Assembly (NCBI GenBank): GCA_963812045.1
Contig: CAWETF010000003.1
Coordinates: 348,881-412,880, forward strand
Length of the DNA stretch: 64,000 nt
Origin: an uncultured delta proteobacterium
GTDB taxonomy: Bacteria; Desulfobacterota; Syntrophia; Syntrophales; Smithellaceae
Direction: 5' to 3'
Part shown: positions 7,801 to 29,428 of the stretch, piece by piece
Layout: each line of letters begins with the position of its first letter
How positions within the stretch are numbered: position 1 is the first letter of the stretch
The notes under the pieces: model-generated
Told to the model about the DNA's origin: nothing
The model's database searches: none
The model's input: only the letters and a program-made list of their open reading frames with translations
Program-made: the position numbers and the translations under genes

Positions 7801-7820
7801 TAAATGTTAACGTATCACAA

Positions 7821-8301: not shown

Positions 8302-8597
8302 TGAAAATCAGATGGTCACATGAAGCCCTTGATCGATTAATCGAAATCGAAGATTACATCTCAAAAGACAGTTCGGTTCGCGCCATACAATTCGTGGATC
8401 AACTTATTGAACACGCGGAATTATTATCTGGAAAACCTCTTATGGGCAGGATAGTCCCCGAACTTGCCAACCCTGATATAAGGGAACTGGTATTTAAGAA
8501 ATATCGTATTATCTATAGGCTTAAAGAAAAACGCATCGAGATACTGACTGTTTTTGAAGGACATAGATTGATGCGAATTGATGAAATTGAAGTTTAG
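8301..8597 (+). CDS. parE: ParE/RelE-superfamily toxin
   Basis: 98 aa. IRWSHEALDRLIEIEDYISKDS...RELVFKKYRIIYRLKEKRIEILTVFEGHR is the ParE-like pattern. TGATG overlap with the antitoxin gene. Confidence 0.8.
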   Translation: MKIRWSHEALDRLIEIEDYISKDSSVRAIQFVDQLIEHAELLSGKPLMGRIVPELANPDIRELVFKKYRIIYRLKEKRIEILTVFEGHRLMRIDEIEV

Positions 8598-8618
8598 TAT
8601 ATGAAAACACTGATACGT

Positions 8619-9545
8619 TTAATCAAAAGGATTGGATTGGTCGAAATCCGGCGTCAGTTCGTAGTCGTTGACTTCCTGAACAAAAATATTATCAAAACCT
8701 AACTTCAGAGCGTAATCAGTGACCTGTTCATATTCGTGTTTGGTGATTCTGCGTTTTAGAATCGGATGATTGCGCACCTTGGCAACCGGCGTGTATTGGG
8801 ACATCAGGCTAAGTTGAACCGACGTGGATATTTTCTTTTTGATCAGCTTTAAGACGTCTTTGGAGTTTTCAATTCTGCCGGGTAAAACAAGATGGCGAAT
8901 AATTATTCCTTTTTGAGCGACGCCGTTTTTCAGTTCCAGACCGTCGCCGACCTGCTTTACCATTTCTTTGATCGAATCAATGGCAAAGCGGGGATATCCC
9001 GGCGCTGACGAAAAATCCACAGCATCTTTTTCCAAACCATATTTAAAATCCGGCAGATAAATATCCACCATGCCGTCGAACAATTTGATAACTTCCGGGT
9101 TCTCATATCCGCCGCAGTTGTAAACAAACGGCACCGTAAGCCCCTGCATGCGCGCCATGCACAGAGCCTCCATCACCAGAGGAGCCTGCGGCGTCGGGGT
9201 TACCGGTTCGACATTGTGACAGCCGCTTTTCTGGAGATCCAGCATGACCTTAGCCAGTTCCAACACCGTCAGATGGCGCCCTTGCGCGTTGTGGGAAATC
9301 TGATAGTTCTGGCAATAGATGCAGCCCAGGTTGCATGAAGAAAGAAAAATAGTGCCGGCACCGTTTTTGCCGGATAAAGGCGGTTCCTCGCCGTGATGGG
9401 CCAGAGCGCAATCCATGACGATATCGGCAGGCAGGCGGCAGTAGCCCAGTTTGCCCGCCGTTCGGTCAATATGACACTTACGCGGACAAAGCGTGCAATC
9501 TTTTAATATTTCTTTTAATCGTAAGACTTTTTCTTTTTGTTCCAT
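8619..9545 (-). CDS. radical SAM protein, PflX-like (pyruvate formate-lyase activase homologue)
   Basis: 308 aa. N-terminal CTLCPRKCHIDRTAGKLGYC and the radical SAM motif CNLGCIYCQN. Confidence 0.8.
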   Translation of the reverse strand: MEQKEKVLRLKEILKDCTLCPRKCHIDRTAGKLGYCRLPADIVMDCALAHHGEEPPLSGKNGAGTIFLSSCNLGCIYCQNYQISHNAQGRHLTVLELAKVMLDLQKSGCHNVEPVTPTPQAPLVMEALCMARMQGLTVPFVYNCGGYENPEVIKLFDGMVDIYLPDFKYGLEKDAVDFSSAPGYPRFAIDSIKEMVKQVGDGLELKNGVAQKGIIIRHLVLPGRIENSKDVLKLIKKKISTSVQLSLMSQYTPVAKVRNHPILKRRITKHEYEQVTDYALKLGFDNIFVQEVNDYELTPDFDQSNPFD

Positions 9546-14464: not shown

Positions 14465-14545
14465 ATTCAAAAGATAACGAGGCGGCAAGGAGGAGGCTCC
14501 GCAGGCGTATTTTACATACGTTGAGGAAGCCGACGACGATGCCAA
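14465..14545 (+). repeat. dispersed ~80-nt repeat, copy 1
   Basis: About 80% identical to the reverse complement of 47051-47130 (shared core ggcgtattwtacatacgttgaggamgccgacgac). Confidence 0.8.
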
Positions 14546-14574
14546 CAAAGTTAGCTGAAGAATGCGACCTGGTA

Positions 14575-16581: not shown

Positions 16582-16720
16582 TATTCCGTTATTCCTCCTT
16601 AAATGATTTTGTCAGCTGTAGTCAGCCCATAAAGCAAGAGTTGCTTTATTCTTTTAATTTACTTTTTCAAACGCATTGTCATATGCTTTTCTTCCTAAAA
16701 AAATCAAGTTCAAAATTTAC

Positions 16721-17701
16721 CTAGTGGTCAAATAATTTCGGTTCACCAGTATTTTTCTTGTAAAGAAAACGTTCCAGGAAGCGATTGTAGGTTGTCCAAT
16801 CAGAATCAGGATTAGTAGAATCAGTGATAAATGTTTTAAAAGCGTTAAACTTGGCATCGAGGTCGTCAATGTAATGGACAACCAAAGCTTCCAGAGTTTT
16901 CGGACGCTTGGGAGAACCGAATTCGAACTCTCCGTGATGACTTAAAATAATATGCCTCAGTTCCAGAGCCAATTGCGGGGGGAAATCATCAATAGCAGCA
17001 ATTTTTTTATTGATCATTTCCACACCCATGACAATGTGACCGATTAATCTTCCTTCATCGCTGTAATCAATGATATTATTATAAGAGAATTCATAAATTT
17101 TGCCGATATCATGAAGAATCCCCCCGGTAATAAGCATGTCTTTGTTGAGGTCGGGATAATGGTCAGATACTTTTTCCAATAAGCGCACAACCGAGAGTGT
17201 ATGTTCTAAAAGACCGCCCAGATAAATATGATGAAACCCTTTGGCCGCGGGAGCTCTCTGGAAAAGCTCAGCGGTTTTTTGATCATGGAAAAACGCTTGC
17301 AGCAACGCTTGCAGAGGTTTTGTCTGAATATTTTCAACATAGGTAAGAATTTCATTAAACATGACGACAACGTCGCCTTGGGCTGCGGGTAAATAGTCGG
17401 CAGGGTCGACATCTTCCCATGGAATTTTGTTAATATCCGTGATTGATATCTGGACGGAGTTGCGGTAACTGGCGGCTTTTCCTTCAATGGAAATTAGATC
17501 GCCTTTCTTAAACCGGCGATCAAATTCCACGGCGTTATCCCAGACTTTACTTTCAATTTCTCCGGTTTTATCTCGTAACCGCACGGTCAAATAAGGGAAA
17601 CCTTTTTGAGAAAAGGCCATATTTTTTTCCGTGACGAGAAAAGAAGAAATAACCTTGTCGCCTTGTTTGATATCCTTGAGATAAATTTCTTTCGTCTTCA
17701 A
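16721..17701 (-). CDS. HD-domain 3'-5' exoribonuclease, YhaM-like (OB fold + HD)
   Basis: 326 aa. N-terminal OB fold (LTVRLRDKTGEIESKVWD), then HD domain (HHIYLGGLLEHT..., GGILHDIGK, HIILSHHG). Confidence 0.7.
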   Translation of the reverse strand: MKTKEIYLKDIKQGDKVISSFLVTEKNMAFSQKGFPYLTVRLRDKTGEIESKVWDNAVEFDRRFKKGDLISIEGKAASYRNSVQISITDINKIPWEDVDPADYLPAAQGDVVVMFNEILTYVENIQTKPLQALLQAFFHDQKTAELFQRAPAAKGFHHIYLGGLLEHTLSVVRLLEKVSDHYPDLNKDMLITGGILHDIGKIYEFSYNNIIDYSDEGRLIGHIVMGVEMINKKIAAIDDFPPQLALELRHIILSHHGEFEFGSPKRPKTLEALVVHYIDDLDAKFNAFKTFITDSTNPDSDWTTYNRFLERFLYKKNTGEPKLFDH

Positions 17702-17835
17702 ATTATTATCCGCCTTTCATGAAAATAAATGTTCATCCTGCCGTTACGCACATAACCTATTAGCATAATATTTGCCTTGCGCAATAACTCCATGAGCAAA
17801 TATTTTTATTGTTTTTATAATTTTATCGAAATTAA

Positions 17836-19749
17836 TCATGTCTTTTCTCTTAAAATGCGGTGGTCGCCGACTCTTACGGTAAGTTTGTTTGTGTCAAAGT
17901 ATTCCATCAGCGGAATTATATATTTGCGGGAAAGTCCGGTTAAGTCTTTAAAGCTTGCCGGCGTGGCCTTGCCGTCTTTTATCAGTTGAGCCTTGTAATC
18001 ATTGCGTAGTTTCTCCAACGCTTTGCCGGCAAAACATAGTTCTTCGTTTATTTGGATTAAATCTCCTTCTTTGAGCATCAACTTGATAATGCTTTGCGCT
18101 TTTGTTTTCTGATCTTTAAATTTGTTCATAACTTCAGAAAGCGAAGAAGGCGTAAGGCCCGCGTCATTATAAATTCTTGCAATATCCCGGCGCAGAGAAT
18201 CCAGTTCTCCTGAAAATTCCACCTGATGTCCGGCGAGGCGCACGTTGTCTTTATCGCTTACGATAGTTCCGTTTTTATTAAGAGAATTTATGACCATATT
18301 GAAAAGTTTTGGTGAAACAATGTTCCCCTGTGACGCTTTGAGTTCTTCTTTGGATATGCCTTCTTTTAGAGAATTATTCTTATGATAAGCGGCAATGTTT
18401 TTGATAATAAGCTCTTCCATTTGATGAAAAAAATTGGCGGAAATAACAGTAGTGTCGTCATTGTCCAGAAGGAAGGCAAATCTTCCGGAAAGTAAAATCT
18501 CCAGCGCGTCTCTGATTTTTCTGGCGTTGATACCTAAACGAAAAGACAGGCGACGTAAGTTAATGCCTTTAAAACCGGCCCGCTCCAGAATCACAGAAAT
18601 TTTTTCCGGCAAAGTTCCTTTTTGCAGCAAATTCAATTCTTCGATAATTTTGGTATTATGCCTTTTGTGTTTGGCCGGAAGCGGGTCGATTATCAGGCCG
18701 CCGCCGATGGTTGTAACGGGAGAATAGCTTCGCAAAACGAAATGGTCGCCGGCCACAACAACGTCATTTTCGGATAAAATAATCTGAGCAAATTCTTTTT
18801 GCCCCGGAGCGAGTTCATCTTTTTCCAGCAGAATTATTCGCGCGATAATTTCGCTTGTGCCAGTATGCAGACGAACCAAAGACCTGTTTTTGAGATTTTT
18901 GGAATTAGAAGCGAGAAATTCAACAAGGACATCCATGCGCTGTGACGGCCATACGGTTTGCGGGCGAACAAGCACATTACCGCGTTCGATGGTTGATTTT
19001 TCAATGCCCTGCAGATTTATCGCCGTGCGTTGACCGGACCATGCTTCTTCCACGGTTTGATTATGCACCTGAATGCCTCTGATGCGGGCGGTAATGTTTT
19101 CGGGAAGTATTTGAATTTCATCGCCGGTTTTGATGTGGTCGGAAACCAGTGTGCCGGTAACGACGGTGCCGAAGCCTTTCATTGTAAAAACGCGATCCAC
19201 AGGCAGACGAAAAATACCGTCATCTGCTTTTTCGGTAATCTGGCATGTTACAGCGTCCAATGTCCGAACAAGATCGTTCAGGCCTTCTTTTTTAATGGCG
19301 GAGACGGGAACAATCGGCGCGCCTTCCAGGAAAGTTCCCTTCAGAAAATTAGTAATTTCCGATTGCACCATGTTCAGCCAGTCTTTTTCAACAAGATCAA
19401 TTTTGGTGAGAGCAACCATACCCTTGGAAATTCCCAGAAGCGAACAGATATTCAGATGTTCTTTCGTCTGGGGCATTATCCCCTCGTCAGCGGCAATGAC
19501 CATCATAACCAGATCAATACCCGCGGCGCCGGAAACCATGTTCTTGATGAATTTTTCGTGTCCGGGGACATCCACGATGCCGAGTGTACGGCCGGAAGGG
19601 AGAGCCAGAGAGGCAAAGCCCAGTTCAATAGTGATGCCTCTTTGTTTTTCTTCTTTTAAGCGGTCGGTATCAACACCTGTAATGGCTTTTATTAACGCGG
19701 TTTTTCCATGATCAACATGGCCGGCTGTGCCGAGAACAAAATGTTTCAT
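17836..19749 (-). CDS. selB: selenocysteine-specific translation elongation factor SelB
   Basis: 637 aa. GTPase G1 GTAGHVDHGKTAL and DVPGHEKF, then a long winged-helix C-terminal extension typical of bacterial SelB. Confidence 0.88.
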   Translation of the reverse strand: MKHFVLGTAGHVDHGKTALIKAITGVDTDRLKEEKQRGITIELGFASLALPSGRTLGIVDVPGHEKFIKNMVSGAAGIDLVMMVIAADEGIMPQTKEHLNICSLLGISKGMVALTKIDLVEKDWLNMVQSEITNFLKGTFLEGAPIVPVSAIKKEGLNDLVRTLDAVTCQITEKADDGIFRLPVDRVFTMKGFGTVVTGTLVSDHIKTGDEIQILPENITARIRGIQVHNQTVEEAWSGQRTAINLQGIEKSTIERGNVLVRPQTVWPSQRMDVLVEFLASNSKNLKNRSLVRLHTGTSEIIARIILLEKDELAPGQKEFAQIILSENDVVVAGDHFVLRSYSPVTTIGGGLIIDPLPAKHKRHNTKIIEELNLLQKGTLPEKISVILERAGFKGINLRRLSFRLGINARKIRDALEILLSGRFAFLLDNDDTTVISANFFHQMEELIIKNIAAYHKNNSLKEGISKEELKASQGNIVSPKLFNMVINSLNKNGTIVSDKDNVRLAGHQVEFSGELDSLRRDIARIYNDAGLTPSSLSEVMNKFKDQKTKAQSIIKLMLKEGDLIQINEELCFAGKALEKLRNDYKAQLIKDGKATPASFKDLTGLSRKYIIPLMEYFDTNKLTVRVGDHRILREKT

Positions 19750-19852
19750 TTGTTTACCTTGATAAAATGCTGTTGGAAAGTAGCAAACTCTTCATTTTTT
19801 CACAAGATTATATTTGCTGTTGATCAAAATAAAAAATGTTTCTGGCTGTGGA

Positions 19853-19883
19853 AAAACACTTGTCAAATTAATTCTTGAAAAAG
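19853..19883 (+). repeat. 31-nt copy of the ruvX upstream region (left copy)
   Basis: aaaacacTtgtcaaattaattcttgaaaaag versus aaaacacCtgtcaaattaattcttgaaaaag at 23846-23876 (30/31). Confidence 0.9.
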
Positions 19884-20052
19884 AATCGTTTCTCGGCTTT
19901 ACTGGAAAAACCTTTTGCCTTCCGGTTGTTAAATGGCAGGAAACCCTTTCCACGAAGGAAGCGGAAGAAATACTGATAAATTCCGGTGTCCGTTGGGAAA
20001 AAAGAAAAAAATGGTGGATAAACTGACGGCCTGCCTGATTCCTCAAGGTTAT
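19884..20052 (+). pseudogene. ruvX 3'-end fragment (internally deleted, frameshifted copy)
   Basis: Aligns to ruvX 24137-24309. It encodes ...KTFCLPVVKWQETLSTKEAEEILINSGVRWEKRKK and then frameshifts in the poly-A run. It is joined to the promoter copy through the shared octamer tgaaaaag. Confidence 0.85.
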
Positions 20053-20053
20053 T

Positions 20054-20902
20054 ATGAAAAAAAGAGAAACATGCCAGATTTGCCTTCAAGAAACAGCAGA
20101 TCATTATCTTGATCTCCAAGGCATGATTTTGCATCGTTGCCGGCAATGTGGACTTGTTTTTAACGCCAGGCCGTTAAATCAAGATACATTAAATGAGATT
20201 TACGGCGAAAAATATTTTCAGAAAGGATATTTTAATAATTGTCATAAAGCCTATGCCTTTAGAGGACAAATTAAGAATTATAAAAAATATTTAAGAATTA
20301 TTAATGGTTTTTGTCCGGCGAAGGGCCGGTTGCTCGATGTTGGTTGCGGGAAAGGGGTTTTTCTTGATGTTGCCGCTAAAGACGGCTGGAAGGTTTCGGG
20401 ACAAGATATCTCTCCTATTGCGGCACGGCACGCCAAAGAACAGTTCTCTTTCCCGGTTTTTTCCGGCCATCTTAAAAGCGCTCCATTCTTAGCGGAATCG
20501 TTTGATGTTGTTACCATGTGGGATGTTATCGAGCATAGTGACAAGCCCCAAGAAATGCTTAATGACGTTTTGCATTTTTTAAAAAAGGACGGGCTATTAT
20601 TTATCTGGACATTAAATCAAGATTGTCTGATGACCTGGATTGCGTATCAATTTTACAAAATAAATATTAATTTTGCGGTGCGGGAAATTTATATTCCTGA
20701 ACACCGGTTTTATTTTAATCAAAAGACATTGGCGGCGATTCTTGAGAAAGCGAAGTTGAAGATTCTTTATAAAAATTTTGACGAATACCCGTTGGACCGG
20801 TATGGCGGAAAAGTTTTTATTAAAATAGGCCTTTCGGTTATTTTTCTATTTCATAAAATCTTCAACATTAAATCCGAACAAGTTTGGGTGTGCAAAAAAT
20901 GA
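20054..20902 (+). CDS. class I SAM-dependent methyltransferase with N-terminal Zn-ribbon
   Basis: 282 aa. CQIC...CRQC zinc ribbon, SAM motif I LLDVGCGKGVFL, post-I DIS, and WDVIEH. Confidence 0.75.
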   Translation: MKKRETCQICLQETADHYLDLQGMILHRCRQCGLVFNARPLNQDTLNEIYGEKYFQKGYFNNCHKAYAFRGQIKNYKKYLRIINGFCPAKGRLLDVGCGKGVFLDVAAKDGWKVSGQDISPIAARHAKEQFSFPVFSGHLKSAPFLAESFDVVTMWDVIEHSDKPQEMLNDVLHFLKKDGLLFIWTLNQDCLMTWIAYQFYKININFAVREIYIPEHRFYFNQKTLAAILEKAKLKILYKNFDEYPLDRYGGKVFIKIGLSVIFLFHKIFNIKSEQVWVCKK

Positions 20903-22008
20903 ATGGAATTCGACAATCACAACTGGGGCTAACTCTTAAATTGTTAAGTGAAGGGCGCATCAAATGGTTTTTTGATAATTTGATAAAGATGGCACTTATC
21001 AAACAGTCTTTTCATTTTAAAAAACCATTATGCGGCCCGCTTGTTGCCTCCGTGATCGTAACGTATAAATGTAATTTTCGATGCCCTTTTTGCGATGCGT
21101 ATAATAAGCCTGCTTTGTTGGAATTAGAAAATAAATATTTTGAGACGGAAGATTTTAAAAAAGGTTTGCAGCAATTAATTGATTTTAAGGTAGGGGTGAT
21201 TGGATTTACCGGAGGTGAGCCATTATTGCGCGAAGATATTTTTGAGTTAATTACTTTCGCCAAACAAAAAGGCCCGGTGGTGCATTTGAGCACCAATGGT
21301 TCTCTGTTAAGCGAGGATCGCGCCGAATTGCTTTTAAGAACGAAAATCGATGGAATCAATATTTCCTTGGATGGGGCCATCGCAGAAACAAATGATTTTA
21401 TCAGAGGAAAAGGTTCTTTTGAAAAAGTTACGGAAAATATCCGTACCCTTGTAGCGTCTCGAAAAAAACTCCGGTCAAAAACACAAATCGGTCTTTTTTG
21501 TGTCTTGACGCGAAAGAATCTCAATGAGACGCAGGCGTTGATATCATTGGCAAAAAAGTTGGGGGTCGACTCTGCTGGATTCATGCCGGTTCAGGATATT
21601 GTGTATAAACATAAAGATGATTATGGAAATCTGAAAAATGAATTATGCCCTGATGCGGAAAGCGAGATTGATCAGGCTGTTGATTTTTTAATTGAATATA
21701 AGAGAAAGTATGGTTTTATTGATGATTCGAAAAAGTATCTTGAATTGTTTAAATCGAGTCTGCGAGGGTATCCGCTTCCTTTGAATTGTTATATGGGGCA
21801 CGGATTTATCGTTTTAGATTGCTATGGAAATATTTTTCCTTGTTATCCTTTTGCGTTAAAAGGCGCCCATTGCGTTGGGAATATTTCAACAACACCGTTG
21901 CGACAGGTTTATCATTCCTCTGAATATGCAAAGGTGAGAGATATGGTGAAAAATTGCCATAGTTGTTACTGGAATTGCACGACGGAATTAAATGTATTAT
22001 TGAATTAA
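20899..22008 (+). CDS. radical SAM protein with C-terminal SPASM/twitch-like Cys cluster
   Basis: ATGA overlap with the methyltransferase stop (start at ATG 20899; the track gives 20884). CNFRCPFCDA is the CxxxCxxC motif, with GGEPLL. C-terminal cysteines: CYGNIFPCYPF...CVGN...NCHSCYWNC. Confidence 0.75.
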   Translation: MNGIRQSQLGLTLKLLSEGRIKWFFDNLIKMALIKQSFHFKKPLCGPLVASVIVTYKCNFRCPFCDAYNKPALLELENKYFETEDFKKGLQQLIDFKVGVIGFTGGEPLLREDIFELITFAKQKGPVVHLSTNGSLLSEDRAELLLRTKIDGINISLDGAIAETNDFIRGKGSFEKVTENIRTLVASRKKLRSKTQIGLFCVLTRKNLNETQALISLAKKLGVDSAGFMPVQDIVYKHKDDYGNLKNELCPDAESEIDQAVDFLIEYKRKYGFIDDSKKYLELFKSSLRGYPLPLNCYMGHGFIVLDCYGNIFPCYPFALKGAHCVGNISTTPLRQVYHSSEYAKVRDMVKNCHSCYWNCTTELNVLLN

Positions 22009-22030
22009 TTAACAGCTATCCCCTATTATC

Positions 22031-23437
22031 TCATAGGCCAAACATCTCAGAAAAATCAATCCATCTAACCTTAAAAAAATAATTATAGCCCCTATGTAGA
22101 TTCCAGATTAATGAAAATATCTTATTCAAATCGTATTGAATCAATCTTTTGACAATAGGTCTTAAGAATGGAAAATCTACGACAAGAGGAAACAAATGAT
22201 GTAAACGGATTATCTTGTCTATGTCCTTGATCTTCATTGGGGATTGATAGTAATAATCTCCTTTTAATGAATTAACATCACCGTCATAATATCCTTTTTT
22301 AATAGAATATTCGCTAAGGTCTGTCCTTGGATATGGCTGGAAAATCGAAACCCATGAATAACTTGGTTTACATTTAATATTCAGGTCGATTGTCTCCCAA
22401 ACAGAATCAAGAGTCTCATCAGGAAGGCCTACCATATTTTGAGTGAAGATATGAAGACCATATTTATGGCATAATTTCGCGATCTGAAGTATCTGGTTCC
22501 GGGAGATATTTCTCTTTAATATTTTGTTCCTTATAACTTCATCTCCGCTTTCAATCGCAAAAACGATGGTTATACAACCAGCTTCCTTAAGGGACCTGAT
22601 TATCTCTTCGTCGATTATATTTACCCTGATATTACAGATAAAAGGAAGTTTGATCTTTTCCTTGTACTCATGGCAAAAATCAATGGTCCATTCCTTATTA
22701 AGGATAAAAGTGTCATCAACAAAATGAAATCTTCGCGGATGAAATTTATTTTTTGTTTGAACCAATTCATTGATGACATTTGGCACAGTTCGTTTACGAA
22801 TAATATTCCCCTTCCCTTGATATAATTTATTATAACTGTGATTAAAACAGTAAGTGCAATTATAAGGACAACCTCTTCCCGTAATAATATGCCTCCTGTG
22901 AAAATTTCTGTATTGTTTGTAGCGATTAATCAGTTCACGATCAGGATAAGGGATTTCATCCAGATTACATATCAAATCCCTTAAAGGGTTCTTATAGATT
23001 TTACCGTTAATCTTCACATCAATATTTTGAATATGTTTTATATCTTTCTTTTTTTCAAGATTCTCTAACAATTCTGCAGTAGCATATTCACCTTCTCCCT
23101 TACAAATAGCATCGACGCCTTCTTCTTCTATGAATTCGGGGAAAAAAGTACAATGGGGTCCGCCGAAAATTGAAAAAAACTTTAATCTTTTCTTAAGGTT
23201 CAGATTAAGTTTTTGATAAAAAGTATGCATTCCAGTTGTTACGGAGTATGCAATAATATCCGGTCCAATCTCTTGAATCTCTTGAAGATAATTTTTTGAA
23301 AGTCGCAGATCTATAAAATAGACTTGATGCCCTTTTTTCTTAAGAAAAGCAGAAATTGTCATCAAGCCTAGCGGCTCAACATATTCATACTTGTAAATAA
23401 ATAAAACTTTCATGTTCTCACGAAGCGATGAATGCAT
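22031..23437 (-). CDS. B12-binding-domain radical SAM protein
   Basis: 468 aa. N-terminal cobalamin-binding-like domain (KVLFIYKYEYVEPLGLMTISAFLKKKGHQVYFIDL), radical SAM motif GRGCPYNCTYCF. Very AT-rich. An alternative start is the ATG at 23413 (MKVLFIY). Confidence 0.75.
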   Translation of the reverse strand: MHSSLRENMKVLFIYKYEYVEPLGLMTISAFLKKKGHQVYFIDLRLSKNYLQEIQEIGPDIIAYSVTTGMHTFYQKLNLNLKKRLKFFSIFGGPHCTFFPEFIEEEGVDAICKGEGEYATAELLENLEKKKDIKHIQNIDVKINGKIYKNPLRDLICNLDEIPYPDRELINRYKQYRNFHRRHIITGRGCPYNCTYCFNHSYNKLYQGKGNIIRKRTVPNVINELVQTKNKFHPRRFHFVDDTFILNKEWTIDFCHEYKEKIKLPFICNIRVNIIDEEIIRSLKEAGCITIVFAIESGDEVIRNKILKRNISRNQILQIAKLCHKYGLHIFTQNMVGLPDETLDSVWETIDLNIKCKPSYSWVSIFQPYPRTDLSEYSIKKGYYDGDVNSLKGDYYYQSPMKIKDIDKIIRLHHLFPLVVDFPFLRPIVKRLIQYDLNKIFSLIWNLHRGYNYFFKVRWIDFSEMFGL

Positions 23438-23447
23438 GACATAAAAC

Positions 23448-23852
23448 TTATGTCAATACAATTTTGAGAACATCCAGGCAGAGCCACTCTCCGAATTCCA
23501 CCACGCGCTTCTGATGGCAGGACGGACAGAAGTGGCGTCTTTTGCAAGAGAAGGCCAGCAGATATTCATGGCCGCACTCTTTGCATCTCACACGGGCAAA
23601 GCCGTGGCTCCGATCGCCGCAATCGAGAAAGCGGTCGATCACTTTTTCGGCATAAGGCCGCCAGAAGCCATACCGCATAAGGATCGACGCAGTGGTAATA
23701 ATCCGTATCTTGTGATCGACGTGGCAGGTATTCGGCTGCGGACACTGAAATATCTTTCTCGCTTCATAGGATGGATAACTCCATCCCGAAGCGAGAAAAT
23801 TTAGTCGGACGAGCGTTCTATTGTCAAGATCAATAAACATCGGGCAAAACAC
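23448..23852 (-). mobile_element. truncated IS91-family (Y2 rolling-circle) transposase remnant, N-terminal Zn-binding domain only
   Basis: GFARVRCKECGHEYLLAFSCKRRHFCPSCHQKRVVEFGEWL matches the IS91 transposase zinc-binding domain. The ORF stops after 134 aa, 11 nt before the B12-rSAM gene. No catalytic Y2 domain is present. Confidence 0.7.
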
Positions 23853-23876
23853 CTGTCAAATTAATTCTTGAAAAAG
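23846..23876 (+). repeat. 31-nt ruvX upstream region (right, functional copy)
   Basis: Direct repeat of 19853-19883. Confidence 0.9.
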
Positions 23877-23880
23877 GCAG

Positions 23881-24330
23881 GTGGAATTGTTAGAAAGCGC
23901 GGCAAAGGAGTGCTTCTTGCGCATACTTGGTTTGGATTATGGTGAAAGAAGAATAGGAGTGGCTATTTGCGACGAACTGGGTCTTACGGCTCAGGGTTTG
24001 CCTACGATAATAAGAAAAAATAAGAAACATGATTGGAAAATTCTGGGAGATCTGATCGCAAATTACAAAGTAGACAAAATTATAATAGGTTATCCTGTAA
24101 GACTGGACGGTTCCGAGGGCATACAGTGTGAAAAAGTAAATCGTTTCTCGGCCTTACTGGAAAAAACATTTTGCCTTCCTGTTGTTAAATGGCAGGAAAC
24201 CCTTTCCACGAAGGAAGCGGAAGAAATACTTATAAATTCCGGTGTCCGTTGGGAAAAAAGAAAAAAAATGGTGGATAAACTGGCGGCCTGCCTGATCCTT
24301 CAAGGTTATCTGGATTCTATCGTAAAATAA
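23881..24330 (+). CDS. ruvX: Holliday-junction resolvase-like nuclease RuvX (YqgF)
   Basis: ILGLDYGERRIGVAICD is the YqgF N-terminal motif. The true start may be the in-frame TTG at 23917 (LRILGLDYG). Confidence 0.85.
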   Translation: MELLESAAKECFLRILGLDYGERRIGVAICDELGLTAQGLPTIIRKNKKHDWKILGDLIANYKVDKIIIGYPVRLDGSEGIQCEKVNRFSALLEKTFCLPVVKWQETLSTKEAEEILINSGVRWEKRKKMVDKLAACLILQGYLDSIVK

Positions 24331-24354
24331 TTTTAAATTAATTCCGCAAAGAAT

Positions 24355-25455
24355 ATGAATAAATCTGTCAAAAAAAGAAATTCAAATAAAAAACAAAAGG
24401 ATTCGTGGATAAAGAGGCTTCTCTTATTCAGGTTCTTTAAGAAGTCATCATCTGTGGACAGAATAGTTCACCGCGCCATTTTATATTTTGTCGCTGTTTT
24501 TTTTATTTTTTGTGTTCTGCTTTTAAATTATTCAATTAGTTCCATTGATAAGAAAAACGTAAATGTGCTGGTTGATATACCGACAGGCTCAAGCTTTTTT
24601 GAGGTTACGGAAACACTTAATCGGGCAGGTCTTATAAAGCACAGGATTTTCTTTTACAGCCTGGCCGTTATAAAAAACGCCAGACGGCACATTTGCGCCG
24701 GTGAGTATGAAATCAATACTTTGCTAACTCCTTCGGCAATGATTAATAAACTGATGCGCGGAGAAGTTAAGGAACATAAAGTCCTGATTCCGGAAGATTT
24801 GTCCATGCAGGAAATTGCCACGCGTCTGGATAATGAAAAGCTGATTAATAAAGAAATGTTTTTTGAACTGGCAAGAGATAAAGAATTTCTGGAATCTTTA
24901 AATATTAAGGCGGAATCCATAGAAGGTTATCTTTTCCCCGATACTTACTATTTCAACCGTTCCATGAACACGCGCAAGATTATGAAAATTATGGCGAGTC
25001 AGTTCTGGAAAAAAGTTACACCGGAGATGATTAAAAAAGCCCAGGGGCTTGGATTTAATACTCATCAGTTTGTCACATTTGCTTCCATTATAGGCAAAGA
25101 GTCAGGTAATGATGCCGAAAAACCTCTTATCTCAGCGGTGTTTCGTAATAGACTCAAAAAGAGAATGCCCCTGCAGAGCGATCCTACTGCTGTCTATGAC
25201 TTGGACAGTTTTAACGGCAAAGTACTGCGTAGTCATTTGAGAAGAAATTCTCCCTACAACACTTACGTCATAAGAGGTTTGCCGCCCGGACCCATTGCCA
25301 ATCCCGGGGTAGCTTCATTGCAGGCAACTCTTAACCCAGCCCCTGTTAATTATCTTTATTTTGTTTCCAAAAAAGACGGCTCACATTTTTTTTCAGCCTC
25401 TTTAAACGAGCATAATCAGGCCGTATATCGTTATTCACATTCAAATAATAAGTAA
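24355..25455 (+). CDS. mltG: endolytic murein transglycosylase MltG (YceG-like)
   Basis: 366 aa. N-terminal TM helix, then the YceG pattern (IEGYLFPDTYYF, ASIIGKES, LQSDPT, YNTYVIRGLPPGPIANPG). Confidence 0.88.
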   Translation: MNKSVKKRNSNKKQKDSWIKRLLLFRFFKKSSSVDRIVHRAILYFVAVFFIFCVLLLNYSISSIDKKNVNVLVDIPTGSSFFEVTETLNRAGLIKHRIFFYSLAVIKNARRHICAGEYEINTLLTPSAMINKLMRGEVKEHKVLIPEDLSMQEIATRLDNEKLINKEMFFELARDKEFLESLNIKAESIEGYLFPDTYYFNRSMNTRKIMKIMASQFWKKVTPEMIKKAQGLGFNTHQFVTFASIIGKESGNDAEKPLISAVFRNRLKKRMPLQSDPTAVYDLDSFNGKVLRSHLRRNSPYNTYVIRGLPPGPIANPGVASLQATLNPAPVNYLYFVSKKDGSHFFSASLNEHNQAVYRYSHSNNK

Positions 25456-25486
25456 ATACAGTAACTTATAAATTAATTTCTTTGAA

Positions 25487-25536
25487 GAAAACAGATAAAA
25501 ATACAAATTTGTATTTTTATCTGTTTTCTTATTTTT
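25487..25536 (+). terminator. Rho-independent terminator after mltG
   Basis: Near-perfect ~19-bp palindrome gaaaacagataaaaataca/tgtatttttatctgttttc followed by ttaTTTTT. Confidence 0.75.
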
Positions 25537-25631
25537 AAAACTTTTTTCATCTCAGAATTATTTCCGGTCCGATTTCTTAATTTCCCCTGTAATTTTAAGT
25601 CGTTTAATTTAAAAAAAGTTGAATTTTTTGC

Positions 25632-25660
25632 TTGACAAAGGCGAATACCGCCTTTATAGT
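25632..25660 (+). promoter_or_regulatory. dcw (Pmra-like) sigma70 promoter
   Basis: TTGACA (25632-25637), 17-nt spacer, TATAGT (25655-25660), ~40 nt upstream of mraZ. Confidence 0.7.
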
Positions 25661-25667
25661 TGGCCAT

Positions 25668-25701
25668 GTGGAGTAAAGTGGTTTATCGTGGAGGAAAGTG
25701 A
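25668..25701 (+). promoter_or_regulatory. putative MraZ operator: phased GTGG direct repeats
   Basis: GTGG at 25668, 25678 and 25688, and GTGA at 25698, with exact 10-bp phasing between the promoter and the mraZ start. Confidence 0.6.
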
Positions 25702-26147
25702 TGTCCGTATTTAGAGGGCAATATCATCATAATATTGATGAAAAAGGAAGAATAATCTTCCCGTCCAAATTCCGCGAAATATTCGCGGAAGAATATGACA
25801 ACCGGATGGTCATTACCACCTGGGATCAGTACCTAATGGTTTTTCCTTACGACGAATGGCTTATTATTGAAGAGAAGGTAGCCCATCAATCCAAGTTGCG
25901 CAAGGAAGTGCGATCGTTTCAGCGTTTCTTCATGTCCGGAGCCGTTGACTGTAATATCGACGGACAGGGGCGTGTGCTCATACCCCCGACTTTGCGCGAA
26001 TATGCAAAATTGGAAAAAGATATTGTTCTGGCCGGCATGCTTAAGAATATTGAAATCTGGTCGAAAGATCGTTTCGAAGAAAGAATGAAACAGGCTGCCG
26101 GTGAAATTGACAAATGCGCTGACTTCATAGCTGATCTGGGAATCTAG
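25701..26147 (+). CDS. mraZ: transcriptional regulator MraZ
   Basis: GGAGG lies 6 nt before the ATG at 25701. Two SpoVT/AbrB-like repeats ([14 protein letters not shown]; [16 protein letters not shown]). Confidence 0.92.
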
Positions 26148-26150
26148 AAG

Positions 26151-27086
26151 ATGATTACCGACTTCTATCACGAGCCGGTAATGGTTAAAGAAGTTATTAA
26201 ATCGCTTTTAGTCAGTAGAACGGGAATTTATGTTGATTGCACTTTAGGGGGTGCAGGTCACGCTTACGCGATACTTAAACAAACGGATGCTTTGCTTGTG
26301 GGAATTGATTGCGACGAGGATGCGCTGCAGTTCTCGGAAAGAAAACTCGCAGAATTCGGTTCGCGCAAAGTTTTAGTAAAAGCGAATTTTGCTAATTTAG
26401 ACAATATACTAAAAAATTTAAATATAAAAAAAGTTGATGGCGTTCTCATGGATTTAGGCGTCTCTTCCCATCAACTCGATGCAGATCAGAGAGGTTTTAG
26501 TTTTAGCCAGAAAGCGCCTCTGGACATGCGGATGGATCGCAGTCTAAAAATAAGCGCTTACGATATTGTCAACAATTTTGTGCAAAGCGAGCTGGAAAAT
26601 ATTATCAGGTTTTACGGGGAAGAAAAAATGGCGGCAAGAATAGCCAGAACAATATCGAAAAAAAGACAATTTTCGCCCATTGAAACAACAACAGACCTGG
26701 CGGCGATAGTCGCTTCCTGCATGCCTGCGAAATTAAAATGGCAGAAAATTCATCCCGCCACGAGAACTTTTCAAGCCATAAGAATCGCCGTAAATAACGA
26801 ACTGGAAAACATTAGACCGGCGATGAACGCTGCCGCTGATGCGTTGAATCCGGGCGGCCGCCTTTGCGTTATCTCGTTTCATTCTCTGGAAGATCGAATC
26901 GTCAAAAACGAAATTCGCGCCCTGCAAGGCGGTTGTACTTGTCCGAAAGATGTGCCGGTTTGTGTTTGTCAAAGAGAAGCGAAACTCAAGAATCTGACGC
27001 CGAAACCGATCATTCCATCACCTGAAGAGGTGGAAGCCAACGCACGCGCCCGAAGCGCCAAATTACGCGTAGCCGGGAGACTATAA
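26151..27086 (+). CDS. rsmH: 16S rRNA (cytosine1402-N4)-methyltransferase RsmH
   Basis: HEPVMVKEV, DCTLGGAGHA, LMDLGVSSHQLD, SFHSLEDRIVK. Confidence 0.93.
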   Translation: MITDFYHEPVMVKEVIKSLLVSRTGIYVDCTLGGAGHAYAILKQTDALLVGIDCDEDALQFSERKLAEFGSRKVLVKANFANLDNILKNLNIKKVDGVLMDLGVSSHQLDADQRGFSFSQKAPLDMRMDRSLKISAYDIVNNFVQSELENIIRFYGEEKMAARIARTISKKRQFSPIETTTDLAAIVASCMPAKLKWQKIHPATRTFQAIRIAVNNELENIRPAMNAAADALNPGGRLCVISFHSLEDRIVKNEIRALQGGCTCPKDVPVCVCQREAKLKNLTPKPIIPSPEEVEANARARSAKLRVAGRL

Positions 27087-27087
27087 A

Positions 27088-27438
27088 ATGGCATCACAAT
27101 CCGCACAGTCCGTTGGAACAAAAGCGATTCCCCACTTCGAAGAAGTCAAGGAAAATACTTTAGGTATAAAGTATTCGACTTTCATTATCTTTGCCCTGGT
27201 GCTCATGTTTGTTGCTTTAATTTATGTGGGTTCTCATATCCATATGACGGAACTGGAATACAGTATTGCTACGGAGTTAAGTGCCCAGCAACAACAACTG
27301 GAAGAACAGAAAAAGTTAAGATTGGAATACGCGATGCTTAAATCACCGCAGCGCATTGAAAGCATTATGAGAAGTAAATTGCAGATGTCCTATCCTGATA
27401 ATGATCAGATCATTGTTTTGAAAAAATCGGGAGAATGA
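27088..27438 (+). CDS. ftsL: cell division protein FtsL-like
   Basis: 116 aa. Single TM helix (FIIFALVLMFVALIYVG) followed by a coiled coil. The position between rsmH and ftsI supports the call. Confidence 0.7.
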   Translation: MASQSAQSVGTKAIPHFEEVKENTLGIKYSTFIIFALVLMFVALIYVGSHIHMTELEYSIATELSAQQQQLEEQKKLRLEYAMLKSPQRIESIMRSKLQMSYPDNDQIIVLKKSGE

Positions 27439-27439
27439 T

Positions 27440-29428
27440 ATGGCGAGTGAATCGAGAAAATGGCTGAAATTCAAAATTGTCATGATTTTCATTTTTTTTC
27501 TCGTATTGTTTGTAGCTTTGATATCACGCGCTTTTCAGCTGCAGGTTTTGTCCGGACAGAAACTGAAGAAATTAGCGACAAAGCAACACACCTCTGTGCT
27601 TCAGTTGCAGCCGGAAAGAGGCATAATTTATGACCGCAACGGCGAGAAGCTTGCCGTGTCCGTCATGGCGAATTCGGTTTGCGCCGATCCTTCCAAAATA
27701 GTTGATCCCGTTAAAACTTCCACACAAATTGCGGAAATCCTCAATCTGGACGGTGAGACTGTTCTTAAAAAGTTGTCTTCTCAGAAAAACTTTTGCTGGC
27801 TGTCCAGAAGAATCCCGCCGGATCAGGCGGATGCCGTGGAGAAAGCCGAAATTGAAGGAATCTTTCTCGTGAAGGAACCCAGACGTTTTTATCCCAACGG
27901 CGAATTAGCGGCACATTTGCTTGGATTTGTCGGTTTGGATGCCAATGGACTGGAAGGTCTGGAAAGTAAATATGATGCATCTCTGAAAGGGAAGCCCCAA
28001 ATGCTGTCATGGGCCAGAGATGCAAAAGGCAAAAAATTGTTTCTGCGCGTAGAGAAGAATGAAACACAAAAAGATGAAAATGTGAATCTTGTACTGACCA
28101 TTGATAATCGCATTCAATATCTGGTGGAAACTCATTTGAGGGAAGCTGTTTTGAACAAGGGCGCCAAGGCGGGACTGGCTATTGTCATGGATCCCAAGAC
28201 CGGCGAGATCCTGGCCATGGCCAATCAACTGGGATTCAATCCCAATAATGTCGAGGGACTGACTCCGGAAAGATGGCGTAACCGCGCCGTTACCGATAAC
28301 TTCGATCCGGGTTCGACCTTCAAGCCTTTCGTGGTAGCCGCAGCCCTGGAAGAGAAAGTTATCAAGGAAACGGATAAATTTTACTGTGAAAACGGAAATT
28401 ATAAAGTGGCGAATCGCGTTATCCATGAAGCAAACAAAAAACGTCATGGAGTGCTGGCGGTGCCCGATATATTAAAATACTCCAGCAATATCGGCGCTGC
28501 AAAAATTGCTCAAAAAATGGGCAAAGAAAGATTTTATAACTACATTCAAAAATTCGGTTTTGGAACGAAAACAGGTATTGATCTGCCTGGTGAAACTTCC
28601 GGGTTGTTGCGGCCGGTGCAAAACTGGGTGCCTGTGGATACGGCAATGATCGGTTTCGGCCAGGGAATTTCGGTAACGGCAATTCAGTTAATTTCCGCCA
28701 TGTCGGCCATTGCCAACGATGGAGTCTTAATGAAGCCTTACGTTGTACGCGGTATTGCCGACAATGATAACCACCTTGTCAAACTTTATACACCGGCGGT
28801 CGTGCGCAAGGTTGTTTCTCCAGATACGGCGAAACGTCTCACCAGGATGCTGACGGAGGTCGTCAGCGCTTCCGACGGAACCGGCAAAAACGCGCGTATT
28901 GTCAATGTTTCCGTTGCCGGCAAGACGGGCACTGCTCAAAAATTTGACTTCTCCCGTAACGTATATTCTTCAGAAAAAGTCCGTACATCTTTTATAGGAT
29001 TTTTCCCGGCAGAAAATCCGCAGGTCGCCATTCTGGTAATTCTTGACGAGCCTCAAAGAGACAAATGGGGCGGTGTCGCCGCCGCCCCGGTGTTTAAAAA
29101 TATCGGTGAACAGATTCTCAATTGCTTTAAAACAAATATCAGAGAAACTCCCGCTCCTGTTCCTGTTTTTGACAAAGAGAAGACGGATAAAGTACAGCTC
29201 GTTTCGACGCAGCAGACTTTGATTTCACAGAGCACCGCTGAAGATGGTGAGCCGGCTATGCCTAATTTTGTCGGTTTGACGATCAGGGAAGCGATGAAAA
29301 AGGCGAAAACTGAATCAATAGATCTTAAGATATCGGGCAATGGCTGGGCAGTGCGTCAGTACCCGCCTGCACATGCGCCTTTAGGCGAAGAACGCTTATG
29401 CAGTGTCGTTTTTGAGCTGAATAATTGA
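27440..29428 (+). CDS. ftsI: penicillin-binding protein 3-type transpeptidase FtsI with C-terminal PASTA domain
   Basis: SxxK (GSTFKPF), SxN (YSSNIGA), KTG (AGKTGTAQ). The C-terminal PNFVGLTIREAMKKAK...ISGNGWAVRQYP is PASTA-like. Confidence 0.9.
   Translation: MASESRKWLKFKIVMIFIFFLVLFVALISRAFQLQVLSGQKLKKLATKQHTSVLQLQPERGIIYDRNGEKLAVSVMANSVCADPSKIVDPVKTSTQIAEILNLDGETVLKKLSSQKNFCWLSRRIPPDQADAVEKAEIEGIFLVKEPRRFYPNGELAAHLLGFVGLDANGLEGLESKYDASLKGKPQMLSWARDAKGKKLFLRVEKNETQKDENVNLVLTIDNRIQYLVETHLREAVLNKGAKAGLAIVMDPKTGEILAMANQLGFNPNNVEGLTPERWRNRAVTDNFDPGSTFKPFVVAAALEEKVIKETDKFYCENGNYKVANRVIHEANKKRHGVLAVPDILKYSSNIGAAKIAQKMGKERFYNYIQKFGFGTKTGIDLPGETSGLLRPVQNWVPVDTAMIGFGQGISVTAIQLISAMSAIANDGVLMKPYVVRGIADNDNHLVKLYTPAVVRKVVSPDTAKRLTRMLTEVVSASDGTGKNARIVNVSVAGKTGTAQKFDFSRNVYSSEKVRTSFIGFFPAENPQVAILVILDEPQRDKWGGVAAAPVFKNIGEQILNCFKTNIRETPAPVPVFDKEKTDKVQLVSTQQTLISQSTAEDGEPAMPNFVGLTIREAMKKAKTESIDLKISGNGWAVRQYPPAHAPLGEERLCSVVFELNN

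Follow-up and report, generated by a model that had tools for sequence, protein, structure and literature searches.

To our knowledge, almost all known cases of gene capture by ISCR/IS91-type elements with subsequent homologous recombination come from resistance plasmids of clinical Proteobacteria. In IS91, the terIS end is upstream of the transposase gene tnp; replication that reads through past terIS mobilizes the adjacent DNA, circles are formed, and no target duplication is generated (PMC13181058). ISCR1-linked integrons consist of a truncated 3'-CS, then ISCR1, the cargo, and a second copy of the 3'-CS (PMC3575428), an arrangement explained by an aberrant rolling-circle intermediate that was inserted via homologous recombination (PMC7707992). 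Here a map of the ISCR type was found in an environmental Smithella, an uncultured anaerobe, where it is chromosomal and the cargo is not related to resistance. As is the case for the ISCR1 complex class 1 integrons, the host segment adjacent to terIS occurs as two direct repeats; these enclose the IS and, on its oriIS side, the non-native cargo, and the second repeat runs on into native DNA. The duplication begins right at the terIS end of an IS91 remnant, a geometry that characterizes ISCR1-type capture. Unlike the ISCR1 integrons, the locus has as its landing pad the promoter and most of the essential chromosomal gene ruvX instead of the 3'-CS, the cargo consists of radical-SAM and methyltransferase genes, the host is a syntroph, and the IS has been cut to its first ~120 codons with loss of oriIS, so that the mechanism is not readable from this copy.

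All coordinates (Table 1) are positions in the window, the whole stretch of 64,000 nt that was analysed. G000 is the genome under study and the other G-numbers are relatives.

Table 1. Features of the selB/ruvX locus of G000, in window coordinates.
Feature	Position	Strand	Remarks
selB, selenocysteine elongation factor	17836..19749	-	Pfam GTP_EFTU, SelB-wing_2/3, Beta-barrel_SelB; left core flank, divergent from ruvX ancestrally
Native selB-ruvX intergenic DNA (IG)	19750..19849		Aligns to intergenic regions of empty-site G039, G032, G017; unbroken into P'
P', left copy of the ruvX promoter-proximal 34 nt	19850..19883	+	32/34 identical to P; contains -35-like TTGAAA
Left partial ruvX copy, pseudogene fragment	19884..20052	+	~codons 75-131 counted from TTG 23917; A-run frameshift
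Cargo gene 1, class I SAM methyltransferase	20054..20902	+	Pfam Methyltransf_23 E 6.5e-24; N-terminal Cys-rich motif
Cargo gene 2, radical SAM / SPASM enzyme	20884..22008	+	Pfam Radical_SAM + SPASM
Cargo gene 3, B12-binding radical SAM enzyme	22031..23437	-	Pfam B12-binding + Radical_SAM
Decayed IS91-family transposase remnant	23448..23842	-	Pfam Zn_Tnp_IS91 E 1.5e-16; terIS-side end ~23841/23842
P, right copy of the promoter-proximal 34 nt	23843..23876	+	Begins ~2 nt or less from the IS91 terIS end
262 bp of the right copy only, deleted on the left	23877..24138	+	-10-like TAGAAA, RBS AGGAG, TTG start, ~codons 1-74 of ruvX
Intact ruvX (YqgF)	23917..24330	+	Pfam RuvX E 2.1e-44
Duplicated 3' segment of ruvX, right copy	24139..24309	+	From alignment; duplication end 24309 is 21 nt before the gene end
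mltG (YceG)	24355..25455	+	Pfam YceG E 5.3e-84; right core flank, then mraZ-rsmH (dcw cluster); order kept in relatives

Of 80 Smithellaceae loci, about 64 have selB and ruvX directly adjacent, with 100-175 nt between them; the closest relatives G039, G032 and G017 are among these, and the G000 island is therefore an insertion. In these three relatives and about 60 others the site is empty, selB, the intergenic DNA, a single copy of P and ruvX being contiguous with native flanks. The cargo had no DNA match in any of 60 relatives, and the first-pass reading of the segment as acquired, inserted DNA holds in this comparison. Orthologues of ruvX, 73-90% identical, are present in 33 of the 36 genomes of the genus. 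The start of the intact gene is probably TTG 23917, as judged from the RBS and conservation, while the ORF finder places it at GTG 23881. The putative ruvX promoter is so called by position and conservation only. It was not called in a sigma-70 scan, whose rule its -10-like hexamer fails, and the promoter-like sites found by that scan numbered 15 overall versus 14.7 expected, with no enrichment.

The promoter-proximal repeat proved slightly longer than first annotated, 34 nt with 2 mismatches, and its two copies are the only matches in the window when up to 3 mismatches are allowed (0 expected, 100 shuffles). Alignment identified AAATTAAT(C/T)CTTGAAAA as the repeat core, conserved across the genus. 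P' is directly fused to the partial ruvX copy, which is identical to ruvX at 162 of 171 aligned columns, the others being 7 substitutions and, in A-runs, 2 single-A indels. This pairwise alignment bears out the proposal that the left element is a copy of the ruvX locus from which about 260 bp were deleted at a microhomology octamer: TGAAAAAG is found at both deletion ends (23869-23876 and 24129-24136) and, in the left copy, at 19876-19883. The fusion itself stood, but the ruvX alignment starts at 24139, 2 nt past the octamer, and not at 24137. A clean octamer-to-octamer deletion predicts TGAAAAAGTAAATCG; the left copy reads TGAAAAAGAATCG instead, and therefore two extra nucleotides (TA, 24137-24138) were lost, for a total of 262 bp. 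The reconstructed duplication is 467 bp, starts at the IS end, and is present as 23843-24309 and as 19850-20052. Its other end, 24309/24310, includes no recognizable CTTG/GTTC/CTCG-type site, the nearest CAAG being 5 nt inside the duplication. A poly-A frameshift had been described earlier in the left copy. The one near 20004 is present also in contigs of other runs; the A-run indel at 19905 is absent from the other-run contigs and may be peculiar to the strain or result from a homopolymer error.

The two ruvX copies look allelic because their differences are mostly synonymous third-position changes, as are 5 of the 7 substitutions; the derived changes of the left copy are L>P, A>T and the frameshift. 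A selB' fragment in G016 has four synonymous changes and one nonsynonymous change. When both genomes were pooled, 9 of 12 changes were synonymous, and a rough binomial comparison with only 7 + 5 substitutions (expected synonymous fraction ~0.77 if both alleles are under purifying selection and ~0.38 for in-situ decay) gave a ~30-fold better fit to two selected alleles than to decay. This small sample lends moderate support to the copies having been diverged functional alleles from two genomes. In G000 taken by itself, the synonymous bias could also arise if a nearly full-length spare copy stayed functional for a while. Both copies carry states specific to the G000 lineage, which indicates that the ruvX segment was donated by a close relative within the same lineage. 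Another sampled species as the donor of the left copy was rejected on the basis of these shared states. The codon-position bias of differences between repeat copies is a cheap general test to distinguish in-situ duplication of a flank from an imported allele.

The ATG of cargo gene 1 lies 1 nt past the end of the ruvX homology, and the true start of cargo gene 3 is likely ATG 23413. In a set of 5.8 billion proteins, cargo gene 2 has no homologue closer than 45% identity, while the nearest ones of cargo gene 3 are 64-68% identical and are found in glycan-biosynthesis clusters on the longer contigs that were read. Since the nearest relatives of the cargo genes differ in this way (68% versus 45% identity), the cargo may itself be mosaic. 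All NCBIfam matches of the cargo, including those of cargo gene 1 and those to maturase models, were far below cut-off and provided no named function; our best guess is a role in glycan or lipid modification. A RiPP cluster was considered and rejected, as 20053-23447 includes no precursor peptide, small ORF or PqqD and the homologue contexts are glycan clusters. The G+C content of the cargo is 35.6%, compared with 43.5% for the genome (1.2th percentile of same-size genome windows). The DNA between the copies had been described as foreign-looking and AT-rich. Only the cargo is AT-rich, the IS91 remnant having a G+C content of 49.9%. The island is compositionally composite, and the ruvX segment came from a donor of the same lineage and not from a foreign organism.

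The island ends, as had been recognized, with an IS91-type transposase remnant. In the 23448-23852 ORF, Zn_Tnp_IS91 (PF14319) matches residues 62-130 with 60.6 bits (cut-off 26.3), and the catalytic domain Y2_Tnp (PF04986) is absent from this ORF, which is truncated at about residue 120 of ~450. There is also a 41-nt internal deletion. Full-length relatives of the remnant (L044 and L046) include Zn_Tnp_IS91 plus Y2_Tnp (E 8e-21 and 5e-21), and the NCBIfam ISCR/IS91 matches to the remnant were below their cut-offs. A promoter-like site detected by the promoter scan (23827-23798) and the N-terminal zinc-binding domain are still present. The DNA is 72-85% identical to multi-copy elements of congeners, being the sole part of the island with matches among the 60 relatives, and no intact IS91 that could be an active source was found in its own genome. 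The remnant is a dead copy of an IS91-family member. In an end alignment with congeners, conservation of the tnp-upstream (terIS) end extends to about 23841/2, within ~2 nt of the right repeat; the oriIS side is deleted. The locus resembles products of one-ended rolling-circle transposition of IS91, IS801 and IS1294 in the zinc-binding transposase domain, in the co-duplication of DNA beyond terIS, and in that no short target duplication is seen. On the other hand, oriIS, the catalytic domain and a recognizable target or termination tetranucleotide at the junctions are lacking at the G000 locus, and transposition alone cannot give its seamless native junctions on both outer sides.

Insertions have occurred repeatedly in the genus just upstream of the ruvX promoter, which makes the site a hot spot: unrelated cargo is present at selB/ruvX in at least four relatives (G006, G016, G044 and G047). 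In G006 and G044, IS91 remnants immediately precede ruvX and have the same orientation, and G047 has an IS91 Tnp fragment upstream of selB. The breakpoints of many kinds of insert fall just 5' of the promoter core, among them that of a MITE-like 200-nt element in G031. These independent occupancies can be considered a natural series, from the simple insertion in G044 through a 43-nt promoter duplication at the same site in G006 and the 467-bp duplication in G000 to a ~557-bp duplication in G016. This last one is seen as ~300-nt repeats with a 194-bp internal deletion of the 5' end of the spare ruvX, G000 and G016 thus both having secondary deletions; G016 has the same order of fragment, island and intact gene as G000, and no trace of IS91 was found in it. 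Divergence between the flank repeats is 5-8% in each of G000, G006 and G016; no pair is near-identical. As in flexible genomic islands at core-gene hot spots, unrelated cargo occupies the same junction in different species; glycosyltransferase genes are present in the G006 and G044 islands, and the homologues of the G000 B12 radical-SAM gene belong to glycan clusters. Unlike such islands, those at selB/ruvX are small (2.7-11.7 kb), have no tRNA or integrase, and show flank duplication instead of clean replacement, and that of G016 is a RiPP-like radical-SAM cluster with PqqD and tandem precursor-like repeats. Public runs included no excision or empty-site reads of the island strain, the skip joints found being those of other Smithella species with empty sites.

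We consider it probable, with modest confidence, that homology-dependent insertion-duplication brought in the island as a group of accessory genes, the likely source being a circle formed by IS91 rolling-circle read-through, and that a deletion then locked it in place. The donor would have been a strain of the same lineage that had diverged, and the incoming DNA would have carried an IS91-like element joined on the terIS side to the donor's own ruvX promoter and ruvX nucleotides 1-429 and on the oriIS side to the cargo. A likely route to a circle is rolling-circle replication from oriIS that reads past terIS into P-ruvX, as proposed for the ISCR1 complex class 1 integrons. Recombination of such a circle with the resident ruvX would produce the structure selB-IG-P-ruvX(1-429)-cargo-IS91-P-ruvX-mltG. 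Later, the 262-bp microhomology-associated deletion would have removed the -10, the RBS, the start and the 5' half of the spare ruvX, the IS would have lost oriIS and about two thirds of tnp, and the spare copy would have gained its frameshift. The map, the empty sites of relatives, the hot spot, the identity and the end of the IS91 remnant and the allele-like divergence of the copies are observed, and from them we infer the circle, a part for IS91 in its formation, and the sequence of these events. Since only 34 nt of homology are left for an excision that preserves ruvX, the island is effectively fixed; a secondary deletion can in this manner fix an island beside an essential gene. Neither a circular form nor an excision product nor an intact IS91-plus-cargo intermediate was seen in the Logan metagenome contigs, where a circle derived by homology would leave no junction specific to it. 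Against a role of IS91 it can be said that the G000 copy has lost both its oriIS end and its catalytic domain, so that an extra deletion must be assumed, that the end of the duplication is not at a recognizable tetranucleotide site, and that the geometry of G016 indicates that homology-driven insertion without IS91 is possible at this site.

The first-pass annotation had proposed a Campbell-type single crossover of a circular element. The order of partial copy, island and intact gene does fit homology-driven integration, but a circle and a single crossover are not the only possible route, as one-sided recombination of linear DNA would give the same map. That annotation had overlooked the start of the duplication at the terIS end, the recurrent use of the site in the genus, and the composite make-up of the island with its same-lineage ruvX donor, all of which alter the picture. 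As expected from Campbell-type insertion-duplication or homology-facilitated illegitimate recombination, direct repeats of the target flank the insert, one copy corresponds to the empty site, and the copies differ as alleles do. The locus departs from these models in that G000 shows no replicon, plasmid backbone or evidence of competence, circular and linear substrates being indistinguishable, and in the secondary deletion of the spare copy, which is paralleled in G016. A generic integration of this type in which IS91 was not causal, by Campbell single crossover or by one-sided homology-facilitated illegitimate recombination of linear DNA, seems to us rather unlikely, though it deserves weight. 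The IS91 copy would then be an earlier or independent hot-spot insertion that marks the end of homology by chance; in the linear version, DNA from an island-bearing strain would have been anchored in ruvX-mltG and joined illegitimately at ruvX nucleotide 429. The IS91-free geometry and allele-like repeats of G016, the diversity of inserts that break upstream of the promoter core, and at least 13 other two-copy local repeats in G000, including one that brackets a Phd/ParE cassette, speak for it. It leaves unexplained why the duplication starts within ~2 nt of the terIS end and why IS91 remnants recur beside ruvX in one orientation in G006 and G044, with a Tnp fragment at the G047 locus.

That template switching or a filled-in staggered break copied P-ruvX(1-429) around the incoming DNA, followed by neutral decay, is improbable. 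Such an in-situ duplication would account for the lineage-specific states in both copies and for the derived changes of the left one, but random decay predicts mostly nonsynonymous substitutions, the opposite of the bias observed in G000 and G016, none of the three repeat pairs is near-identical, and the cargo is unique in its genome and hence has no template copy. Site-specific integration by a tyrosine or serine recombinase, with an att site near the ruvX 3' end, an element carrying the promoter and ruvX 1-429, and later loss of the recombinase gene, is very unlikely. Homology does stop sharply at 24309, and integrative elements that target genes often bring a replacement gene segment, which would also result in allele-like repeats. 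However, Pfam detected no integrase, excisionase, recombinase domain or plasmid gene in any island ORF and no integrase or excisionase in the flanks, ARAGORN found no tRNA in 15000-28000, and Rfam no RNA-gene attachment site; moreover, repeat lengths and end points differ among G000, G006 and G016 without a common core, and a 467-bp att region including a promoter would be atypical. Finally, an assembly artefact that joined strain variants, conceivable for a metagenome-assembled genome with an A-run indel at 19905 not found in other data, can practically be discarded, as both junctions are present in independent short-read contigs: a 3962-nt Logan contig matches 19982-23943 at 100% identity and covers the transitions from left copy to cargo and from IS91 through P to ruvX, and a peat-metagenome contig ~97-98% identical spans 19845-20126, i.e. 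P', the deletion junction, the partial ruvX copy and the start of the methyltransferase gene.

The island is not a new kind of element but a fairly ordinary case of homology-assisted gene capture. A broader and tentative extension of the favoured IS91 reading is that Smithella IS91-like elements may carry out ISCR-style gene capture on chromosomes of uncultured syntrophs, in which a segment of the ruvX promoter or gene, picked up by read-through past terIS, would be a portable homology arm for repeated RecA-dependent delivery of unrelated glycan, radical-SAM or RiPP cargo to selB/ruvX, and selection would then remove the 5' end of the spare ruvX, a loss observed in parallel in G000 and G016, and so lock the island. 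Elsewhere in G000, the other two-copy local repeats bracket 0.8-14 kb. At the Phd/ParE cassette (window 7821-8735) the duplicated gene end differs mainly at synonymous sites, and comparison of two other bracketed cassettes with the closest relatives gave matches mostly to dispersed repeats and variable regions.

Of 80 ruvX loci from Smithellaceae, about 64 have a divergently oriented selB gene as the neighbour of ruvX at a distance of 100 to 175 nt, and the group with this empty site includes the closest relatives of the source genome (G000, Smithella), namely G039 (RuvX about 90% identical at the protein level), G032 and G017. The native selB-ruvX intergenic DNA of G000 is wholly covered by nucleotides 19750-19883 and 23877-23916, and therefore the segment 20053-23842 is an insertion. 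Comparison with relatives lacking the island thus bears out its acquisition, as proposed in the first-pass annotation.

The promoter-side repeat lies where that annotation had placed it and could be extended to 34 nt, 32 of them identical, between a left copy, P' (19850-19883), and the right copy, P (23843-23876); only these two matches are found in the window when up to three mismatches are allowed, and 100 shuffles gave none. Fused to P', as had also been reported, is a partial ruvX copy (19884-20052) that aligns with ruvX nucleotides 24139-24309 in 162 of 171 columns, the differences being seven substitutions and two single-A indels. The fusion had been attributed to a microhomology deletion: 262 bp (23877-24138) are indeed missing from the left copy and the octamer TGAAAAAG is found at both ends. 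The joint is imprecise, however, as the TA after the second octamer is absent as well. The duplication originally measured 467 bp, these 262 being lost from its left copy afterwards. Its limits, counted from the probable TTG start (23917; RBS AGGAG), are 74 nt upstream and ruvX nucleotide 393 or, counted from the GTG of the ORF finder (23881), 38 nt upstream and nucleotide 429. An assembly artefact is excluded by independent contigs with this arrangement: a 3,962-nt contig of short reads in a different data set matches 19982-23943 with 100% identity, and a contig of a peat-metagenome strain, about 97-98% identical, covers 19845-20126 with the same junction. The latter has in common with the window an A-run deletion near 20004, whereas the 19905 indel and the A of position 20026 are absent from it.

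The island carries three intact cargo genes and a decayed IS91-family transposase piece (see table). The description of the island as AT-rich holds for the cargo, whose 35.6% GC (genome mean, 43.5%) falls at the 1.2th percentile of windows of its size and whose tetranucleotide distance is at the 96th percentile, but not for the IS remnant, with 49.9% GC, so that the island is compositionally composite. It includes no tRNA, Rfam RNA, integrase or plasmid gene. All three cargo genes are single-copy in G000, no DNA matches to them were found among 60 relatives, and the nearest protein homologues are 68% (B12 radical-SAM) and 45% (SPASM) identical. The B12 enzyme homologues have as neighbours genes for glycosyltransferases, epimerases, MBOAT, STT3 and PMT_2 proteins; no precursor peptide or PqqD gene lies beside the cargo radical-SAM genes, and no curated family model reaches its cut-off for the cargo. 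Our working guess is that the cargo is a glycan or lipid modification module and not a RiPP cluster. A tblastn search of the 3.4-Mb G000 genome finds about 40 radical-SAM paralogues of the B12-binding type and over 15 of the SPASM type.

Features of the ruvX island and of other repeats, inserts and gene fragments (window positions unless a locus, L, or contig, C, is named)
Feature	Coordinates	Strand	Remarks
Methyltransf_23 methyltransferase	20054-20902		intact
Radical-SAM/SPASM enzyme	20884-22008		intact
B12-binding radical-SAM enzyme	22031-23437	opposite to other two cargo genes	intact
IS91 zinc-binding transposase domain only	23448-23852	minus	134-codon ORF
Junction insert, G006			11.7 kb; glycosyltransferases, DUF2142, GT2-rSAM-SPASM fusions
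Junction insert, G016	L017 8454-17242		9.3-kb RiPP-like cluster; two radical-SAM/SPASM genes, PqqD, S26-like peptidase, ABC transporter, NTP_transf_5, tandem precursor-like repeats
Tandem 97-nt repeats, G016	L017 16300-16396 / 16642-16738		about 70% identical; may encode paralogous precursor peptides
Junction insert, G044			2.7 kb with PMT_2 glycosyltransferase
Junction, G047			ruvX locus divided over two contigs
MITE-like insert, G031	L039 ~2010-2370		about 200 nt
mltG 3'-end copy, G006	L014 4262-4423		aa 313-366, 80% identical; intact mltG at 7069-8172
selB fragments	L013 (G009) 9072-9320; G035:C23:19600-19956; G040:C11:54172-54578; G045:C10:199161-199567		
Phd/ParE cassette	7821-8735		pair between duplicated radical-SAM gene 3' ends, 7821-7934 / 8619-8732
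Second cassette in window	48107-48360 / 50409-50611		one 656-aa gene between ~250-nt repeats
G000 local repeats, C1	C1:116789/121334; C1:252873/255692; C1:94227/101503; C1:1181173/1183744		
G000 local repeats, C2	C2:40074/53913; C2:65039/67274; C2:80504/86081; C2:263928/267426		
G000 local repeats, C5	C5:173417/182932; C5:708411/715815; C5:1121670/1124650		
Dispersed repeats, G000	C5:1105544-1105666; C3:499709-499791; C1:211930-212040; C2:189338-189462		C3 copy also window ~14473-14555

The IS91-type remnant noticed at the island end was recognised by its zinc-binding transposase domain. It is 72-85% identical to multi-copy elements of congeners, whose full-length transposases (452-468 aa) include Zn_Tnp_IS91 and Y2_Tnp; compared with these elements it has a 41-nt internal deletion and ends at about residue 120. 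Alignment of the tnp-upstream ends places the element end at about 23841/2, at most about 2 nt from the start of the right repeat (23843). In IS91 the end upstream of tnp is terIS, replication begins at oriIS and often runs past terIS, mobilising the DNA beyond, and circular intermediates form with no target duplication (PMC13181058). The DNA beyond terIS in the window is exactly the duplicated P-ruvX segment. The island has the same map as ISCR1-linked class 1 integrons, which consist of a truncated 3'-CS, ISCR1, cargo and a second 3'-CS copy (PMC3575428), and for which the accepted model has an aberrant rolling-circle product close into a circle and integrate through homologous recombination (PMC7707992). 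Two read-through events would produce a circle oriIS-IS-terIS-P-ruvX(1-429)-cargo, and its recombination with the resident P-ruvX would yield selB-IG-P-ruvX(1-429)-cargo-IS-P-ruvX-mltG (IG, intergenic DNA), which is the order observed. The first-pass annotation, which proposed Campbell-type integration of a circular element at ruvX, was largely right on geometry and direction, while the circular intermediate is still one that we infer. The G000 island belongs with the insertion-duplications already known, of the ISCR/IS91 or the Campbell type; two additions to the earlier picture are the hot spot for insertion and the relationship of the duplication to the terIS end of the IS91 remnant.

Unrelated DNA is found at the selB/ruvX junction in at least four other Smithella species, and several more loci have no selB within 3 kb of ruvX. 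In G000, G006, G044 and G047 the boundary with foreign DNA is 0-16 nt upstream from the conserved core of the promoter, AAATTAAT(C/T)CTTGAAAA. G006 and G044 have IS91 remnants located directly upstream of ruvX and in the same orientation as in G000; the one in G006 is the terIS-proximal stretch also kept in G000, with 25 nt deleted, and the one in G044 covers Tnp residues 177-242. G047 has a Tnp fragment upstream of selB. In gene trees a clade with good support unites G000 and G006 with G039, G032, G017 and G009, all of which have the empty site, and G044 lies elsewhere, a placement that requires losses, exchange or repeated insertion. Two of the islands repeat the G000 geometry. In G016 direct repeats at 8156-8453 and 17302-17598, identical in 277 of 298 columns, take in codons 1-38 of selB, the intergenic DNA and the beginning of ruvX, and a further piece of ruvX is found as well; a deletion of 194 bp in the copy on the selB side removed the start of ruvX together with some 63 codons. 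In G006 the promoter core is duplicated (43 nt).

Other irregularities were seen at these loci. The G031 insert directly precedes the promoter core of ruvX, and its MITE-like look comes from a 76-nt piece (2053-2128) that recurs inverted at 4323-4398, downstream of selB. The mltG 3'-end copy of G006 sits between mraZ and mltG, about 2.6 kb from the intact gene, with the same fragment-insert-intact geometry as at ruvX, one gene away. In four Smithella species only N- and C-terminal selB fragments with stops remain beside an intact ruvX, and selB is frameshifted in G043, a pattern suggesting that selenocysteine decoding was lost repeatedly within Smithella.

Homology-driven integration without a causal IS91, by Campbell crossover of another circle or by one-sided homology-facilitated illegitimate recombination, accounts for G016 and for the many other bracketed cassettes of G000, but leaves unexplained why the repeat should start at terIS. 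As for an in-situ duplication, many states unique to G000 among all sampled species are common to both ruvX copies, so the ruvX segment comes from the same lineage and not from the source of the cargo. Five of the seven substitutions between the copies are synonymous third-position changes and two are nonsynonymous, of which A>T at 24283/20026 is recent, being absent from the peat strain. The 38-codon selB' fragment of G016, which is incapable of function, has four synonymous changes and one nonsynonymous change relative to selB plus a homopolymer cluster at the boundary, bringing the pooled count for G000 and G016 to 9 of 12 synonymous, and the Phd/ParE cassette repeats show the same bias (seven synonymous changes and one two-codon cluster). 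A rough model with an omega of 0.1 predicts a synonymous fraction of about 0.77 for two alleles both under purifying selection and about 0.38 for one functional and one neutral copy; the likelihood ratio of about 30 for allelic origin is a rough estimate from a small sample of 12 changes. This codon-position pattern counts against in-situ duplication, which is disfavoured. The repeats of the three genomes are all 5-8% diverged, none being near-identical, as would be expected if islands with identical repeats were soon lost by recombination. An integrase-type element is also disfavoured, as recombinase, tRNA and common core are all absent.

Following insertion-duplication, the spare ruvX lost its -10-like element, RBS, start codon and some 74 codons through the 262-bp deletion, and the G016 deletion removed much the same parts; we infer that the loss reflects selection against a second, truncated RuvX, or simple stabilisation. 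Recombination between the 169-nt repeats would destroy the only intact ruvX, and as a consequence viable precise excision has just 34 nt of homology. The best sigma-70 match of the region is a promoter-like site of the IS on the minus strand (TTGACA-18-TAAATT, 23827-23798) directed into the B12 radical-SAM gene, which it might conceivably now drive, a suggestion weakened by the lack of overall enrichment of promoter-like sites. The methyltransferase ATG is one base after the end of the left ruvX homology, so that P' may feed the plus-strand cargo.

Besides the two cassettes in the window, the first bracketed by repeats whose differences are mostly synonymous, G000 has at least another 11 local direct repeats in two copies (87-450 nt, with 84-98% identity) that bracket 2-14 kb, and insertion-duplication may be a common route of cassette gain in this genome. 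Dispersed 80-125-nt repeat families, with 20-75 copies per genome and abundant in congeners too, look like MITE/REP-type elements. Finally, a segment of the relative G005 (C7:1197838-1199642) is 94-95% identical at the DNA level to G000 C5:1119700-1121618, as compared to about 80% for other orthologues, and looks like a recent exchange.
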